Assembly: GCA_964016885.1 (NCBI GenBank)
Contig: OZ024743.1
Span: forward strand, 273,606,001-273,670,000
Direction: 5' to 3'
Origin: Eledone cirrhosa
Lineage: Eukaryota
DNA length: 64,000 bases
Part shown: positions 2,540 to 53,484 of the stretch, in pieces
How the letters are laid out: each line of letters starts with the position of its first letter
Position numbering within the stretch: position 1 is the first letter of the stretch
Position numbers and translations under genes: made by a program
Notes under the pieces: generated by a model
The model's database searches: none
Told to the model about the DNA's origin: nothing
Seen by the model: only the letters and a program-made list of their open reading frames with translations

Positions 2540-4240
2540 ACACATATTACAGCCTTTACTGAGGAGGCCATATCTGAACGCTTTAATTGTCCGAAAAAGA
2601 GATGCAAGAATACATTCGAGGTCAAGCAAGCTAAAGAAAAGTCTGGGGATTTCCCCAGATACAGCATAGTCGACCAGATTTTTTTCCTCTCCGGCAGTTA
2701 TTTGAGAGATCTTAGCTGGATTGTCAAAAGCTGTACGTTAGTTTTATGCCCCTCGAAGAGGCATACTATCACAATTATCAAGAGTATCTGATTTTCTACT
2801 TTACGTTTCTCACTTTTAGTTCCCTTGCCCTTTTTACGCAACCCCTCCTATTTTCTAGTGAACTTGGCGTGGACGAATATTTTATTATGATCATAAAACT
2901 TCCTATTTTACCTCCACTACCTTGCGTCTTGAGTGAATGACTTTTACTATAGCTCGATAGAAGCCTTTTGAGCTGCAATTGTGTAAAAAGTACTGGCTTA
3001 CCTACATTCGTTCTACTTCTACCTCCTTTAAAGCAAGGTTCTATAATCATTCTTCTACATTTAAATCTCCACTTAAAAGGACTAGCACCACCCCCTCAGA
3101 ACTTATTTGGTCCTTAAAAGACAAAATCATAAATTACGAAAGTTCTTGGCGAAAAATATACAACGCATACTCCTATGCTTCCATATCTAGTGTTTGTAAT
3201 TTATGTTTAGTTGAAAAATTTACCATTATCTCGAATTCCAACACAGTAATAAATCGAATAACCGATTTATTTGGACTTTGTAATTATAAATCCTACAAGA
3301 CCTTTCACAAAGTATATAGCTGATGTCCTATAACATATTCCATGATATTCACGGTTATCTTTACACATCTTTCATTATATTCTACAATGTATTAATTTGG
3401 TTTTCTCATCATATATTATGCCTTTGATCTTTTTTCTATACCCTTAGACTTTCGCTCAAACCTTCGTAGATTTTGTAAACAAATTATGACGTCATATATC
3501 TTTATACGTTTATAAACCTTTCTAGCAATTTATTTACTTATTGATATAAAATAAAAACGTTTATAAACCTTTATAAAACGTTTATAAATCTTTCTAGCAA
3601 TTTATTTACTTATTGATAAAAAATAAAAATTAAAGAGTATACCCCCACATATATAGATTTTTACTAGAAATTATTAATTTTAAACATAGATGGACTATTT
3701 TCATTTTTATTTTATTTTATAAAAACCTTTTTTTTATATTTATATATTTTTTTATATTTATTTTATTTTATTTTATTTTATTTTATTAATACAATTTTAC
3801 ACTTCTTAATCCAATTTTCAGTATTTAAACCAAATATAAAATAATATACACAGTTTCTATATTTAGATCTCTAACATTTGAATACCGTCTATAATATTCG
3901 CACATACACCTCATCAATTTACTTTTTAACCGTTATTTACAGCTGTTTTTATTTTGACAGCGTTCCTGATTTCTCTCCCTCTCTTCTTTTTTTTATTTTT
4001 TTTGTCCTTTCTTCTCTTTCTTTTCTTTTTTCTCCTCTTCTTTCCTTTTCGTCTATTTTCCTATCAATTCCTTACTATAGTATCATGTGTAGGCTTAGCA
4101 CTTTCCTGTAAACAGGTGCTATTATGCCTCATTTTAACTTAATTTATCAGAGGAGTATACCATTTTTGCCCCAGGATGATTTTGTATTCGAAATGCGCAT
4201 AATAAAATATATGGAACTCTTTTAACCATCTTTTAATGTG
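2540..4240 (+). mobile_element. Decayed Penelope-like element: GIY-YIG endonuclease remnant, AT-rich 3' region and pLTR hammerhead
   Basis: ORF 2979-3323 YIRSTSTSFKARFYNH..SELIWSLKDK..W..CNLCLVEK matches the PLE GIY-YIG C-terminus; hammerhead-like motif at 4144-4205. Confidence 0.8.
4144..4205 (+). ncRNA. Type I minimal hammerhead-like motif (decayed or variant core)
   Basis: TTAT-CAGAGGA-stemII-GAAA-TGCGCA-TA-ATAA with palindromic stem III; downstream flank is shared with the 23070-23412 element. Confidence 0.6.
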
Positions 4241-10816: not shown

Positions 10817-11017
10817 GAAGGAAATGTGGTAAGGAACCAGGTGGACCATAACGCACCAAAGTACTCAATACTTAGGGTAGTAGAGTGGGTAATAGGAACA
10901 AGTAAGACCCCGAAGGCTGAGCACAAGCCGTTTCGACGGCTAATTCTGGACTGAATCATTCAGTCCAGAATTAGCCGTCAAAACGGCTTGAGCACAGCAA
11001 TCGGGGTCTTACTTGTT

Positions 11018-11021
<4 letters not shown>
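10812..11021. mobile_element. Fold-back mini-element with 3' half of a hammerhead, in (TA)n
   Basis: Palindrome 10892-11021 centred on GACTGAATCATTCAGTC; minus arm has GAAA-CGGCT..AGCC-TTC-GGGG. A related fragment lies at 36232-36296. Confidence 0.65.
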
Positions 11022-11059
<38 letters not shown>

Positions 11060-11063
<4 letters not shown>

Positions 11064-12145
11064 GTTGGTGCGAGCAACGGCTAAAAAAAGTCGTTGGGAC
11101 ACGTAAATAAAGGGGACGCTAAGGTAAACAAACAAAATGGTTTAAGCAACAGAAAGTGATGAAGAAAGTGACAAGTTCCAGATTTCTATGAATATAAATT
11201 CGGTGAAATCGTGAACGAGAGAATAAAGACCATCAAACCTGGTTGAAATGTGAGCAAGGAAAGAATTTCGCACAGGTCTAACGGGAGGAAGAAGGGATCT
11301 AGTCTGTGATTTCGGTGAACGTAAGTTCGGTGAACGTAAGTTCGGTGAACGTAAGTTCTGTAGACGAGAGAGAGAGAAAAAAAAACGACCTGCCAGACCA
11401 AGAGTGCGAAAGAAAAGAATTACGCACAGGCCAAACGGGAAGAAGGAGGAGGGGGAGAGGTAGTGACAGAGAATGAGTGAGTGAAGGGTGAGGAAGAGGC
11501 TAAAAGAGAGAGAGAGACTGCTAGAAAGGGTAAAGATACAAAGAACGAAACAGACGGGTAGCAGCAGAGGAAAAAATATATGTGTAAATATGATAATAAT
11601 GGAGCTGCGGCGTTGCAAATGGGTTACATATGAAAAAGTTTGTCCTTCATCAGTGGTCTTCCAACCGTCCTAGGCATTTCATCGCTTTAAAGACCATATA
11701 CCTCAGGTTGGTGCGAGCAACGGCTAAAAAAAGTCGTTGGGACACGTAAATAAAGGGGACGCTAGGGTAAACAAACAAAATGGTTTAAGCAACAGAAAGT
11801 GATGAAGAAAGTGACAAGTCCCAGATTTCTATGAATATAAATTCTGTGAAATCGTGAACGAGAGAATAAAGACCATCAAACCTGGTTGAAATGTGAGCAA
11901 GGAAGGAATTTATTATTATCATATTTACACATATATTTTTTCCTCTGCTGCTACCCGTCTGTTTCGTTCTTTGTATCTTTACCCTTTCTAGCAGTCTCTC
12001 TTTCTCTGTTAGCTTCTTCCTCACCCTTCACTCACTCATTCTCTGTCACTACCTCTCCTCCTCCTCTTTCTTCCCGTTTGACCTGTCCGTAATTCTTTTC
12101 TCGCGCGTTCTTGGCCAAGCCGGTATGAATTTTTTTCTCTCTCTC

Positions 12146-12207
<62 letters not shown>

Positions 12208-12491
12208 CGTCTGCGACTTCACAGAACTTATGTTTACCGAATTCGCAGACCAGACCCCTTCTTCCTCACGTTAGACTTGTGCGAAATTCCTTCCTTGCTC
12301 ACATTTCAACCAGGTTTGATGGTCTTTATTCTCTTGTTCACGATTTCACCGAATTTATATTCATATAACTCTGGGACTTGTCTCTTTCTTCATCACTTTC
12401 TGTTGCTTAAACCATTTTGTTTGTTTACCCTAGCGTCCCCTTTATTTACGTGTCCCAACGACTTTTTTTAGCCGTTGCTCGCACCAACCTG

Positions 12492-12492
<1 letters not shown>
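11060..12492 (-). mobile_element. Non-coding 643-nt-unit element (family D): 1.3 tandem units plus inverted arm, flanked by (TA)n
   Basis: TCAGGTTGGTGCGAGC at 11060 and 11703; 11912-12492 is an inverted copy of 11061-11600; internal 15-bp x3 repeat at 11311-11355. Confidence 0.85.
11642..11743 (-). ncRNA. Candidate non-circularly permuted (pseudoknotted) hammerhead ribozyme, copy 1
   Basis: GUCC-hairpin-UCGC-a-CCAACC-ug-AGGUAU-A-UGGUCUU-uaaa-GCGA-u-GAA-AUGCCU-aggac-GGUUGG-AAGACCA-CUGAUGA-a-GGAC. All core nucleotides are present in swapped order and covary with the other copies. Confidence 0.7.
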
Positions 12493-12559
<67 letters not shown>

Positions 12560-18088: not shown

Positions 18089-18481
<393 letters not shown>

Positions 18482-24968: not shown

Positions 24969-25783
<815 letters not shown>

Positions 25784-26942: not shown

Positions 26943-27367
26943 TATTAATTCAAAATATTAACAAAATAGATATTCTTGTGATCAAGTATATTTTATTATA
27001 CATATTTCAGAGGTACTGAGTTAACTTCAACAGTACGTCCTCATCAGATAAAATAACATGATGCATGACATACCCTGACATAGTAGATGGTTAAGACTGA
27101 ATTAATGACTGAATCTTAACCATCTACTATGTCAGGGTATGTCATGCATGCATCATTTTATTTTATCTGATGAGGACGTACTGTTGAAGTTAACTCAGTA
27201 CCTCTGAAATATGTATAATAAAATATACTTGATCACAAGAATATCTATTTTGTTAATATTTTTAATTAATATTAATAACTCCGGAAAACCAAACTTGTTG
27301 AGTGCTTCCAATCTAAATGTAAAATTCATTCTTTGATTTATACATTGAACCTTGTTTAACCTTTAAA
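26943..27367. mobile_element. Fold-back pLTR-like element with an intact hammerhead in both arms
   Basis: TTTTAT-CTGATGA-GGACGTACTG..CAGTACCTCT-GAAA-TATGTA-TA-ATAAAA at 27161-27223 (+), mirrored near 26990-27050 (-). Confidence 0.85.
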
Positions 27368-33277: not shown

Positions 33278-33786
33278 TGCAACCACGGTGCACACCATTT
33301 TTTCATATATTTATATATTTTCCTCCGCTGTGACCCGTCCGTTTCTTTCGTACTGCTTCCCCTTTCTCTGTATTTCTCACTTTCTTTTTACCCCCTCTGC
33401 CAGTCACTCTCTCAGTTAGCCTCTTCCTCAAACTTTCACTCACTCACTCTCTGCTAGTCCCTCTCCATCACTTCCTCCCCTTTGACCTGTGCGAAATCCT
33501 TTCCTCGCTCACATTTCAACCAGGTTGGATGGTCTTTGTTCTCTCCCCTACGATTTCACAGAACTTATGTTCATCGATTTCAGGTACTTGACTCCTTCTT
33601 CCTCACTTTTCGTTGCATTACCATCTTTGTTTGTTTGTTTACTGTATAGCTCGTTCCCCCTATTTACGTGTCCCAACGACTTTCTTTAGCCGTTGCTCGC
33701 ACCAACCAGAGGTATATGATCTTTAAAGCGATGAAATACCAATGAAGGCTGGAATATCACTGAGGAAGGACTAATTCTATTCATAT
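33278..33786 (+). mobile_element. Family D element, about one unit, in (TA)n
   Basis: Homologous to 11912-12492 and continues through the ribozyme-like motif. Confidence 0.85.
33670..33771 (+). ncRNA. Candidate permuted hammerhead, copy 2
   Basis: GGUAU-A-UGAUCUU..GCGAU-GAA-AUACC..AAUAUCA-CUGAGGA-A-GGAC. Confidence 0.65.
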
Positions 33787-38822: not shown

Positions 38823-39053
38823 ATAGTATGATAGAATATTAAATGTTAAGTGTTAATTGAACAAGTACTTTCATGCTTTCGCAATCTTCAGGTTCACAAT
38901 GTGTGGTGACAGTCATGTTTGCAATTTTCAACTGTTTTCCACAGTTGAAAATTGCAAACATGACTGTCACCACACATTATGAACCTGAAGATTGCGAAAG
39001 CATGAAAGTACTTGTTCAATTAACACTTAACATTTAATATTCTATCATACTAG
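38823..39053. mobile_element. Near-perfect fold-back with canonical minimal hammerhead in each arm (38980-39018 on +)
   Basis: TGAAC-CTGAAGA-tTGC gaaa GCAt-GAAA-GTAC-TT-GTTCA. Confidence 0.85.
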
Positions 39054-40595: not shown

Positions 40596-41400
40596 TACAA
40601 TTGTACGTGATGTGGTCCATCCACAGCCCCGGCGGACAGAATGGAGAAGGCGTTTCCCTGGAGGACGGCAAGGGAGAAGCGCTTGAAAAGCCATTCCAAC
40701 TCGCGGGGCTCACACCTGCGGCTGGCTAACTCAGTGGTGGTGAGTAAGGAGATAGCCCTGGGGCCAAAGACACCAGAGGTCTCCAGGGTACGACCGCAAA
40801 CATGTCGGAGAGCGACCGGTATTTGAGGAGTTTGGGCCCCTCAGCCCGACGTGCAGCAGAACCTGGGTCAGTCGCAGACTGCACCAGGTTGCGGCTGCAG
40901 AAAGTGTTGGTGCAAGTGGCATCCCAGACGAGGGGTTTGCCACCTCGGAACGGGAAGATGGTCATGCCATCTGGCCGTTTGCCGTCCTCTCGATCCAGCC
41001 CCACCGGCTCGAGCTGGTAGGGGAAGCCTGCAGCGTCCAATCCATGATTAATGACCTCGTTGAGGGCAGCATGGCGTGAAAGGCGGTCGGCACTGTGGCG
41101 ACAGAAAAGATGGTGGATGCCGAAAGAGTCCACGGTGGAACTGCAGCGATATCGGTGCGGCTGGCAGATCCGAACGCCGAGCCTCAAGGAAACGCAGATG
41201 TGCAGGCTATGGTTGTCTAGCTGTGTGCCAGTGGAGATGGAGGGCTGGGAAAGGAGCCAGGCACCATTGTGGGTTTGGAGGCCGCACGAAAACAAGCAAG
41301 GTGGTGCCGGTCGAGCTGGCGCGTTAGCCTGTCTGAAGCCAGGCTGCACTGGATGGCATCCCAAGTGCATTGGGGGGACTTGACGTCAACAGGGGGAGAA
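40596..41400 (-). mobile_element. CRE-like non-LTR retrotransposon 3' fragment (CCHC + restriction-like endonuclease)
   Basis: RHAALNEVI..LEPVGLDREDGKRPDGMTIFPFRGGKPLVWDATC; GC-rich and frameshifted. Confidence 0.85.
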
Positions 41401-45419: not shown

Positions 45420-45955
45420 ATATTTTTGACTGGCCACCTTCCTGGTGGCAAGGTTGTAAAAGAAAAGAAATTGTCATCCGTGGAATCGCAAGAATGTTTT
45501 GCAAATGTTGAAGGTGCCAGCTATCGCAGCCATTTGTAGACTATGAATTAGGGAGCTGCGCTCTTTGTCCGCAAATTTAAGTTCAGTTATACATTGGTTC
45601 AAGCGGGTTGGTATATAACCCGTAGCTCCAATAATGATAAGTATGTAGCTAAAGGTGTATCTTGGATACCGGATTTGTAAACTCCTCAACAATGGTCCGT
45701 AAATGTCCTCCTTCTCCTGTATTTTTCTGACAACGTTTAAATCAAGTGGGCAGCTGATCTCCACAACAGAACACGTTTTCAATGTGTGGTCCCAAACAAC
45801 AATATCAGACCGGTTGTGCTTTAATTTGGTGGCAAATTTTATTTTCAGATTCCACCAGTATTCCTTAGTGCCATCTGTCTCAATATATTCTTCCTCCTTT
45901 GTTTTTAATTTTGTTTTCCGAAGTGCGTTCCAGATGGTTCTAGCTATCCCATCGT
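45420..45955 (-). mobile_element. RLE-type (R4/NeSL-like) non-LTR retrotransposon 3' fragment
   Basis: HNRSDIVVWD..CSVVEISCPLD..EKEDIY..IIIGATG restriction-like endonuclease motifs. Confidence 0.8.
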
Positions 45956-46072
45956 GTATGTATGTATTTGTGTATCTATGTATGTATGTATGTAAATATG
46001 TATATATGCGTATAAATGTATATGTGAATATAAATTAGCCTATTATCAAAGTTGTGTTCAAATCATTTAATA

Positions 46073-49244: not shown

Positions 49245-52076
49245 CTTTAAGTCTTTTGGAAGCCTCGACAATGCAAATGGGTAAATCTCCGGGTAACAAG
49301 ATCCGGTGGTGGAGAGAGCGATGTAAGTGGGTGTACATTGAGATGCGTGGTGTGTATAAGATGTGTAAGATGTGTAGAAGAATGAAGGGAAGAGTATAAA
49401 GGATAAAATAACAATAACAACACAAGAAAGAGTTACCTTGGGAACGTCGAGCTGAAACTCCTACACCTCGGACCCAAGTTCGTCGTCTCACAACGTCTCG
49501 ATGACAGACTCAAACTCAACATCGAGGCGAACTTTTTTCGAGCCGCTTACCAACAGCGCCACAGAAAATAACAGCGCCCACGCAACCCACCCCAAGTTCC
49601 CCACTTACCACAAAACCCACCACCCCCGAACTCGACACTAAACTCATCAGGCTAAAACACTCCATCTCGGATATACTTCAGAAACGCACACACACACGCA
49701 CATACATGACCTCACCAAATCTCAACTCACCACTCTCTCCAACCGAAAATCGAAGGACCTCATCTATCTCTCCTCCGACAAGGGAAAAGAATTCTGCGTC
49801 ATCAGCAGAGAGGCCTACAACACCCTGGCCCTCCAACACCTTGACGATGACAACCTCTACTCCAAGGTCACGGGAATCATTCCAGCGCAGATAGAAGAAC
49901 ACATCAACGCTGCCTGGACGAACATCTGCGACCGGCGGAAGCTCCCGAAGAAGCTGAGATACAACCTCCTCACAAGGAACAACAGACTACCCGCCTTCTA
50001 CCACCTCGTGAAAACACACAAACAGGGACCCGACCTGAAGATCAGGCCCATCGTATCGAGCGTGGAGGGACCACTCTACAAAATTTCATGGCTCCTAGCC
50101 AGAATACTCAAACCCATCTTAGACACCTTGCCGGAACACCTTAACAGCTCCGAGGAGGTGTTGAAGCGCCTGCATCAAATGGATCCCGACACCAGAAGGA
50201 ATATCAGATATGCCTTCAGCCTTGATGTAGTCGCTCTCTACACCTCGGTCCCGGCACTCCCCGCCGTCAATATACTGATGGAACGCCTCCAATCCACCGA
50301 CCTACACTGCTTCGGGCTCACCACCACTGACATCCACCAACTCCTATCCATCGTCGTCGACAACACCTACTTGGGATTCCTTGACCAAACATACCAACAA
50401 ACCTCGGGATTGCCCATGGGATCAAGCCTATCAGGTGTGCTAGCGATCTCTTACAGGGACAACCTCAAACGCAAGGCACTCAACGTCTGCCGCCCCAACG
50501 CCGTAGCCTTTTTCTCAAGGTACGTGGACGATATCCTCATCCTCACATCTTCCCAAGACACGGCGAACAGAATCTATGAGACGTTCAACAACACGGACGA
50601 GAACATTGACTTCAGTATTGAACACCCCAACGAAAACGGGTCACTTGCCCTCCTCGACTTCCGAATCAACATCACGGAACAGGGAAGGATCCACTGCAAC
50701 TTCTACCGAAAGGCAGCCTGCAGGTACCTGTTCGTTCACTAGAAGTCCGCCTTCCCTAACAGTGCTAAAAGATGATACATCACGAACGAGATCGCGCGAA
50801 TCAAAAACAGATGCAGCGATCCCGCGAGTGTTGTCACTCATACCATGCGATTCCTCGAGGTGCTGGAGACGAACGGGTACCCTACCTCGATCACAGACAG
50901 AATAGGAGACACCAGACACAAGAGACAGATAGGCACCCAAGGCAAGTGCTTCCTTAAAATTCCACATCTGGGCGAGAATACCACCAATGCTATCCGCAAG
51001 GCTATACGGAGGGAGGGCTTCGACATCCACCTGGATCACTCGGCCCCTCCCTGCGAAGATGCTTCTCCAGGAAATCCGGGAAATCTACTGACGCATGCTC
51101 CCTCAGAGACTGCCCGATACGCCATGCGACTGTTGCCTACGCACATACGTCATGTATAAGATAGAATGTGACAGGTGCAACCAATACTACATAGGTAGCA
51201 CAATCCGACCTTTGCACATCCGTCTTTCAGGAAACACATAGACAAATGCGGAAACAAAGACGGAAGGCCCATTGTCACAATTCTAGCGACTGAAAGAAAC
51301 GTCGGCACGTTACATATCAAGGAAGCGCTTTTTATCAAACCCCTGCAACCACAAATAAACAACCGATCACAGAGAAGCGAAATGAGATGGCTGGTTTAAG
51401 TTAACAAACGATGCAGCAACACACAACACACGCACACACACACACACACACACAAACGAGACAACTGCACACACACACGCACACACACACAGTAACATTC
51501 CACCATACGAACATACTACACTGCCAATAGAGAGGAACAAGGCAACACACGCACACACACACCCACACTGAAGCGAGACAACAACACACGCATACACACA
51601 CACAGTAACATTTAACAAACAGGCAGAGAATGGACTGACAGCTAGCGCCACCCCACTCCCTCATTCGGCCGCCGACCTCTGCCCGACCGACCCCATTTCA
51701 CGCGCACGCGCGCTCTGCCGTATACCTCAGATATTCAAAACAACAAAAGGCGGAGGACGCGTTCGCACCTGTCCGACGGACAACCTTTTCCCCCACCCCG
51801 TTGATGGATGTGAATCCGAAATATATACGACTATTAAATCTCTCCCAAGGTAACTCTCTCTTGTGGTGTTATTTTTATTTTATCCTTTATACTCTTCCCT
51901 TCATTCCTCTACACATCCTATACACACCGCGCATCTCAACGTACACCCACTTACATCTCTCTCTCCACCACCGGATCTTGTTACCCGGAGATTTACCCAT
52001 TTGCATTGTCGAGGCTTCCAAACGACTTAGAGATATTTACTTATTATTCCACAATACTTCAAGCAAACTTCAATAT

Positions 52077-52726: not shown

Positions 52727-53484
52727 TTACGGCTTAATTCGGGATGTTTGTTTACAAACACACTGAGCATTATAATAAATGTACGTACATATATATATGT
52801 GTGCATGTATGTATGTATATATATATATAAAAAAAAACATGAGAAGAAAGAAGAATACTGCGTGGTTGCACATGGGTTACATGTGACAAAAATAGTCCTT
52901 CGTCAGTGATTTTCCAACCATCATTGGTATTTCATCGCATTAAAAATCATATACCTCAGGTTGGTGCGAGCAATAACTAAAAAAAGTTACTGGGACCAGT
53001 AAATCGCGTAAAGCGAGGGGGACAAGTGAACAACATAGAAGGATAAAAGCAAACCAAAGAAAGGAAAATATATATACATACTACTGTACGTCTGTATACA
53101 TGTATGTATGTACGTATACATACTTATATTTAATAACAGACGTACAAAGAGTGAGAAATTAAATTTCGTTTCATTTTTTCCGTTTATCGTTTTCGGTACC
53201 CCGGCCGATTAATTCATTCGATATGCAAATTAGGCTGCTATGCCGTTAATATGCATAAGGAAAGTATATACTTTCAGACGTTCAACCATCTGGTATACGT
53301 TGCTGACGATAGCTAATGAGCTTTAAACTAGTACAGCGTTCCTTTGTCAGTGTTGAACAAATGAGCAACGATGGATGCTAAACACTGTACGGCTTAATTC
53401 GGGATGTTTGTTTACAAACACACCGAGCATTATAATAAATGTTCGGTGAATCCATACGTACATACATATATGTGTGCATGTATG

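Follow-up and report, generated by a model that had tools for sequence, protein, structure and literature searches.

The window analysed here, that is the whole stretch of 64,000 nucleotides, contains a non-coding retrozyme-like element, family D, whose sense strand carries a predicted hammerhead ribozyme with its conserved blocks in the non-circular S-G-C order. The family combines this block order with covarying helices, a tandem plus inverted insertion geometry, TA flanks and no ORF. It is probable that family D is a ribozyme-bearing non-autonomous retroelement of (TA)n sites, copied by a Naiad-type Penelope-like RT from RNA that is uncleaved or re-ligated. The interest of the element lies chiefly in the ribozyme and how widely it occurs, and not in a model in which its ends coincide with the cleavage site.

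At locus 1, a full unit of 643 nt (11060..11702, with the sense on the minus strand and 67% pyrimidine), whose 3′ end stops 6 nt before the next predicted cut site, is joined to a partial tandem unit on the same strand (11703..11911) that comprises the final 209 nt of the unit, is 5′-truncated at unit position ~429 and contributes the upstream half of the ribozyme. Beyond it lies an inverted, 5′-truncated arm of 581 nt on the plus strand (11912..12492; unit positions 97-637), and the locus as a whole holds one complete ribozyme only. This arrangement produces a direct repeat of 216 nt (97%) spaced 643 nt and inverted ends 315 nt long (95%), flanked by (TA)n tracts at 11020..11059 on the left and 12493..12559 on the right. 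In a dimer of the unit, neither strand contains an ATG-started ORF that reaches 40 aa. The stop-to-stop frames, 125-175 aa long, are of low complexity, and the unit folds only mildly better than shuffles (z ~ -2). The account of this locus in the preliminary description as a full unit, a partial tandem unit and an inverted arm with no credible ORF is borne out in each part, and its view of a non-coding, retrozyme-like element with the insertion geometry of Penelope-like elements (PLEs) is supported. Three 15-nt tandem repeats at 11311-11358 are specific to the locus-1 unit and have almost no coverage in aligned read contigs, and a near-perfect 65-bp palindrome at 10892-11022, possibly a fold-back PLE remnant, adjoins the TA tract at the left end.

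Searches with BLAST and nhmmer find just two more loci of the family in the window, both of which had already been noticed in the preliminary description. Copy 2 (33278..33786, plus strand) is about one unit, ~81% like it and circularly permuted, starting at ~+79 and ending at ~+70; its length equals one unit minus ~9 nt, opened downstream of the ribozyme, with TA on either side and a 4-nt ATAT overlap with the target at the ~+70 end. Copy 3 (52829..53070, minus strand) is 5′-truncated, runs from ~-120 to +121 and likewise has TA on either side. All six outer termini of the family touch (TA)4 or longer, compared with 1.7% of non-tract positions in the window. The tandem plus inverted arm occurs at one of the three loci, and truncation or permutation at all three. 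The long inverted ends and TA flanks of locus 1 resemble those of a MITE, a DNA transposon with long terminal inverted repeats and a TA duplication, and the preliminary description had named such hallmarks as evidence against a retroelement. The fixed terminal inverted repeats are, however, missing from copies 2 and 3, and thus from two of the three loci; these copies are 5′-truncated or permuted, and the RNA structure is conserved. A MITE reading is therefore largely refuted and, in our estimate, scarcely credible.

The predicted type-SGC ribozyme of copy 1 occupies 11642..11743 on the minus strand, with the cut between 11697 and 11696 at an AUA triplet; its equivalents lie at 33670-33771 (+) in copy 2 (predicted cut 33716/33717) and at 52996-52895 (-) in copy 3 (predicted cut 52950/52949). 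Read along the sense strand of copy 1, the cleavage block comes first (block S, 11690..11702 (-): stem III 5′ strand, cleavage site and stem I 5′ strand), followed by the GAAA block (block G, 11673..11685 (-): stem-II-side strand, U11.1, GAAA and stem III 3′ strand) and then the CUGANGA block (block C, 11642..11660 (-): stem I 3′ strand, CUGAUGA at 11653-11647, A10.1 and a strand that pairs upstream). This is the non-circular S-G-C order; GAAA stands before CUGANGA and the circular C-G-S order of types I-III is not present, and an Rfam scan of the locus returned no hammerhead model among 22 matches to E 10. The CUGANGA, GAAA and UH core nucleotides are found in all three copies, with U, G and C at the variable N7, and the short S-to-G linker and the stem I-II interaction helix are present as in type SGC. 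Stem I has 7 pairs and stem III has 5 (95% and 100% of cells paired, with 2 double changes in stem I), and stem II has just a single direct A-U pair, which a predicted junction extends; in copy 2, mismatches occur in both stem I and the interaction helix. Over the three-copy alignment 96% of cells are paired and 4 pairs are changed on both sides; this pairing is equalled by 8 of 500 shuffles, with slid controls at 24-50%, and the covariation is that of three related copies, the same from which the structure was derived. A descriptor of the S-G-C arrangement, composed after the sequence had been viewed, has 3 matches in the window, all in family D; 200 dinucleotide shuffles averaged 0.005 matches. 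It passes none of 129 listed viral loci collected with three motif patterns (the family D pattern, 5 loci without helices; a looser pattern, at least 120; the Naiad-type pattern, 4). These comparisons support the assignment of a type-SGC hammerhead to family D, with cleavage as a prediction only, and they sustain the permuted ribozyme of the preliminary description.

The place of stem II appears to be taken by a four-way junction, in which the strands after CUGANGA and before GAAA are predicted to pair with two strands located upstream, on either side of a hairpin. The upstream module, at 11713..11743 (-), consists of a 4-nt partner of block C, an 8-bp hairpin and a 4-nt partner of block G, and the two 4-bp arms of the junction are invariant across the three window copies. 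In each of the 11 representatives scored, the module outscores shuffled versions of the upstream region (at most 4/300; 0-3/300 in the three window copies); at the 8 metagenome loci among them the search pattern had fixed one junction arm, which leaves the second arm and the hairpin as the independent parts there. Stem III is in turn joined to the interaction helix (11711-11706 with 11666-11661) by a kink-turn consensus with strands at 11705-11703 and 11672-11667, the whole feature spanning 11661..11711 (-). Both locus-1 ends stop at the last base of the short CUGA strand of this kink-turn, a strand that we take to resemble box D. Each of the three window copies has the consensus, as do 2 of the 8 further families scored, and the G of the n-strand and the GA of the b-strand are invariant in 7 aligned sequences (63% identity). 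A 3-nt bulge followed by tandem GA pairs, located between stem III and the interaction helix, is the standard kink-turn sequence, which the available part of PMC4316175 defines as a 3-nt bulge and then tandem G-A pairs between two helices. Judging from this consensus, the kink would bend stem III back toward stem I; the connection between these two stems was hard to fit for Eckert et al., according to the accessible text of their paper (PMC10085705).

Public sequencing reads document the same unit in two organisms, with 29-30 of 30 bins covered in all four runs. Joints that close a unit of 636-643 nt are seen in each of these runs. The 2663 contigs of run X1 that align to the unit reach their highest depth over the ribozyme, and in read contigs other sequences diverge upstream of 11750. 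All 11 of the in-ribozyme substitutions listed either keep the pair or fall in unpaired or kink-turn loop positions; at two hairpin pairs, for instance, both partners are substituted in 475-485 of ~650 reads, counts that represent subfamilies and not independent events. Depth peaking on the ribozyme and the branching off of other sequences would fit an origin of family D as the terminal repeats or truncated ends of an autonomous Naiad with its ORF elsewhere, and copy 3 does resemble a 5′-truncated Naiad end (+121). At locus 1, however, the unit extends from one ribozyme to the next and includes no ORF, copy 2 provides another ORF-less permutation of unit length, and the unit-closing joints recur in every run, which together make this origin very improbable.

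The two locus-1 arms also bear on how the element is copied. Relative to the full unit, the inverted arm is mismatched at 9 of 70 sites in unit 231-300, a gap-free stretch, and at 3 of 134 and 7 of 209 sites (1-3%) outside it; given this difference in divergence, the arms are likely to derive from separate templates on which priming began at one common site. Each outer end is a 3′ end of the ribozyme-sense strand, and the two terminate at one unit position; in both, the 6 nt immediately preceding the predicted cut are missing and the sequence passes directly into a TA tract. To this extent the placement of the ends in the preliminary description is confirmed, with the junction uncertain by 1 nt because the last retained base also fits the TA phase. 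Ends at the cleavage site do not hold as a rule for the family: two of four 3′ ends lie near the cut, both at locus 1 and so at one of three loci, and the remaining two lie at ~+70 in copy 2 and ~+121 in copy 3.

The preliminary description had proposed that self-cleavage yields unit RNAs with a UAUA terminus and that these could pair with a nicked (TA)n target, such that 3′ ends mark the cut. The coincidence of both locus-1 ends, likely from two templates, at 6 nt before the cut is the part of the evidence that favors annealing, and at the left end a TATATAT primer terminus would be able to pair with the final 7 nt (one wobble, one mismatch), with loss of the GG. Yet the GG that precedes UAUA should have been copied and is missing at both locus-1 ends, the flank at the right end matches just 3 of the 6 missing bases, one locus-1 arm crosses an intact cut site, and half of the 3′ ends fall downstream of the cut, at distances of 70 and 121 nt. 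In raw reads the depth does not step at the locus-1 end (1038 reads at 11694 and 978 at 11705 in run X15, which is RAD-seq and samples few loci), and relatives end at ~+125. We regard end annealing of this kind as unlikely. Nor do the ends provide the independent support for the ribozyme that had been claimed for them; that support comes from covariation and from relatives.

Relatives of the ribozyme occur in two collections, the published Naiad consensi and metagenome loci. As described in the accessible part of PMC8557442, Naiads are (TA)n-biased, show 5′ truncation and partial tandem plus inverted insertions, and are without canonical hammerheads; the hammerhead descriptors given there used the CUGANGA-then-GAAA order. 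A tally by eye of all 62 unbroken sense-strand CUGANGA sites in the published file of 54 consensi, as available (PMC8557442), places S-G-C hammerheads in 13 of them: Beroe (with a 2-bp stem I), one Clytia, three near-identical Acropora, two Octopus, Euprymna, two in part 12, two in parts 16-17 and one in part 19. By the same visual tally 6 of the 54, all nematode, have C-S-G hammerheads (PMC8557442 File S5), well-formed examples of type CSG in which the interaction helix, where checked, measures 9-12 bp. The other 35 in this tally, including all bivalves, Darwinula, Saccoglossus and Architeuthis, have no clear permuted ribozyme. One Naiad (File S5, part 17) shows by eye a third arrangement, S-G-C with a long S-to-G linker that contains the stem II partners. 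The ends of the octopus Naiads have the hairpin start and both kink-turn linkers in common with family D, and their motif lies ~118 nt before a TA-flanked end, again as judged by eye from the available file.

Among metagenome contigs, the Naiad-type pattern matches at least 120 loci, and of the 120 listed 48 pass the strict descriptor and 72 fail; a relaxed descriptor added L142, L151, L205, L211 and L222 but lost some others. The listed matches include two families, F1 (at least 22 loci, near the Acropora Naiad by eye) and F2 (at least 21 loci), which have ragged 5′ ends and sharp 3′ ends at ~+122 to +128 and so resemble copy 3, in a mapping of ends that is blind to copies ending at the cut because the search required blocks G and C. 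At L142 an RT C-terminus that is Naiad-like by eye ends ~185 nt before the S-G-C cut, and L222 contains a piece related to this RT (E 2e-5). Further SGC ribozymes with the junction occur at L198, L212 and L211 with no ORF nearby. The exact family D motif was not found in metagenome contigs or in the published Naiad consensi as available (PMC8557442).

A second kind of host is indicated by three loci, L136:3-3850 (-), L172:4022-4590 and L205:3-1270, in which RT/REL-type ORFs (RT and zf-RVT) end 40-185 nt before an SGC ribozyme. From their motifs we take all three to be REL-type non-LTR elements; in L136 the N-terminus of a second copy follows in tandem, and the kink-turn is present in L136 and L172. 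That such elements bear the same ribozyme, kink-turn included, counts against a Naiad-only view, and it raises the alternative that a non-LTR retrotransposon with a REL endonuclease, and not a PLE, mobilises the ribozyme RNA. REL-like fragments exist in the window as well, at 45474-46034 (-) and 40726-41385 (-), which presumably, by motifs, resemble non-LTR REL endonucleases and have no Pfam match. Against this alternative, the partial tandem plus inverted 5′ arm and the (TA)n bias are features described for Naiads in the available text of PMC8557442, the octopus Naiads are the closest match by eye, and the family D unit has no nucleotide similarity to the metagenome loci. Mobilisation by a REL-type element is, in our view, distinctly improbable.

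The remainder of the window, animal-like DNA rich in microsatellites, contains further pieces of PLEs and no Naiad ORF. Minimal canonical type I hammerheads with the palindromic stem III typical of PLEs are found at 25293-25364 (+); 47417, 16388 (-), 53303 (+); and 54466 (-), the first of which matches Rfam HH9 at E 2.5e-6, with a score under the gathering threshold. Motifs like type I hammerheads also occur as three inverted pairs, at 18210-18335, 27000-27220 and 38850-39030, which are fold-back PLE remnants. A broken PLE ORF at 49642-51200 (+) has an RT (Pfam RVT_1, E 1.6e-8), a DKG motif and a GIY-YIG motif downstream, and so is not a Naiad. A fragment at 2961-3323 (+) is like a Hydra-clade PLE endonuclease by eye, with no Pfam match.

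For the preferred reading, copying by a Naiad-type RT, we infer transcription, cleavage, circles and the Naiad partner, which could be linked as follows. Read-through transcripts would fold the ribozyme, with the four-way junction standing in for stem II and the kink-turn bringing stem III onto stem I, and part of the RNA would be cut to unit length. Because five helices keep the upstream and downstream halves paired, we propose that the cut ends may be held ready for ligation into circles. A Naiad endonuclease would then nick (TA)n, and the RT would start internally on RNA that is uncleaved or re-ligated, chiefly at positions downstream of the ribozyme (+70, +121). At locus 1, each target strand would have primed one event at the kink-turn edge immediately upstream of the cut, giving rise to the tandem and the inverted arm. 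The longer locus-1 arm crosses the intact cut site, and its template was therefore uncleaved or re-ligated at that point; copy 2, at one unit minus ~9 nt, is as expected from one round on a circle. Since the arm crosses the cut, copy 2 is about one unit long and no read-depth step is seen, templates appear to be mostly uncleaved or re-ligated, which by analogy agrees with the behavior of the Anolis PLE as far as the available text of PMC11167929 describes it. Family D itself would most likely be an ORF-less derivative of a Naiad-type end.

Considering all of these loci jointly, we lean, without strong conviction, toward the broader reading that a large class of non-circularly permuted hammerheads has been overlooked in animal genomes. 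Naiads would carry S-G-C forms (with the four-way junction and often the kink-turn) or C-S-G forms at their ends, REL-type non-LTR elements would carry the same S-G-C form, family D would be the first such retrozyme, and the kink-turn would be a protein-bound landmark. In that capacity the kink-turn would set the RT start or protect the cut RNA end, with its CUGA being the locus-1 stop. If the structures cleave, the statements that known organisms have no permuted hammerhead and that Naiads are without hammerheads need revision, the CSG type gains a host in the nematode Naiads, and standard ribozyme and retrozyme screens will have missed a whole class. A natural hammerhead with both a four-way junction and a kink-turn would present a new fold to solve, and with constructs of ~110 nt the part that cleavage plays in PLE transposition can be tested directly.

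In the accessible text of Eckert et al. 2023, SGC ribozymes come from metatranscriptomes and CSG ribozymes from metagenomes, with none in genomes of known organisms (PMC10085705). Permuted hammerheads in Naiads, animal repeats or non-LTR elements are not reported in the literature searched, made up mostly of papers outside subscription and seen in part (including PMC13725137). Family D is like type SGC (HRIMA-1 and variants, PMC10085705, as available) in its S-G-C order, full core, short stem I-to-stem II linker and extra I-II helix. It differs from the published SGC ribozymes, described as lacking a multi-stem junction, in having a four-way junction, in placing the stem II partners and the interaction strand upstream of the cut and in joining stem III through a kink-turn; this would make it a variant architecture relative to the text description in the available part of PMC10085705, the alignments of which could hold junction-type variants. 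With the animal non-LTR retrozymes, as the available parts of PMC7229834, Li et al. 2026 (10.64898/2026.07.22.740005) and PMC4209133 describe them, it shares non-coding head-to-tail units with a hammerhead. A PLE origin, mobilisation by PLEs and circular intermediates have been proposed for those elements in the same accessible sources (PMC7229834; 10.64898/2026.07.22.740005). They are described as having type I hammerheads in two complete tandem motifs, whereas family D has an SGC hammerhead with one complete ribozyme per locus, a 643-nt unit and insertion at (TA)n. The likeness to Naiad PLEs includes the (TA)n bias, 5′ truncation, the tandem plus inverted arm and, by eye, the same ribozyme design (PMC8557442, available part), and the difference is that family D has no EN-RT ORF. 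Finally, in vitro work with the protein of the Anolis Poseidon PLE found internal priming and extension of both target strands without a need for cleavage, according to the available text (PMC11167929). That system belongs to a different PLE clade and has a canonical hammerhead, and it shares with the copying proposed for family D internal priming next to an AC-rich stretch, an AT-rich target and an uncleaved template.
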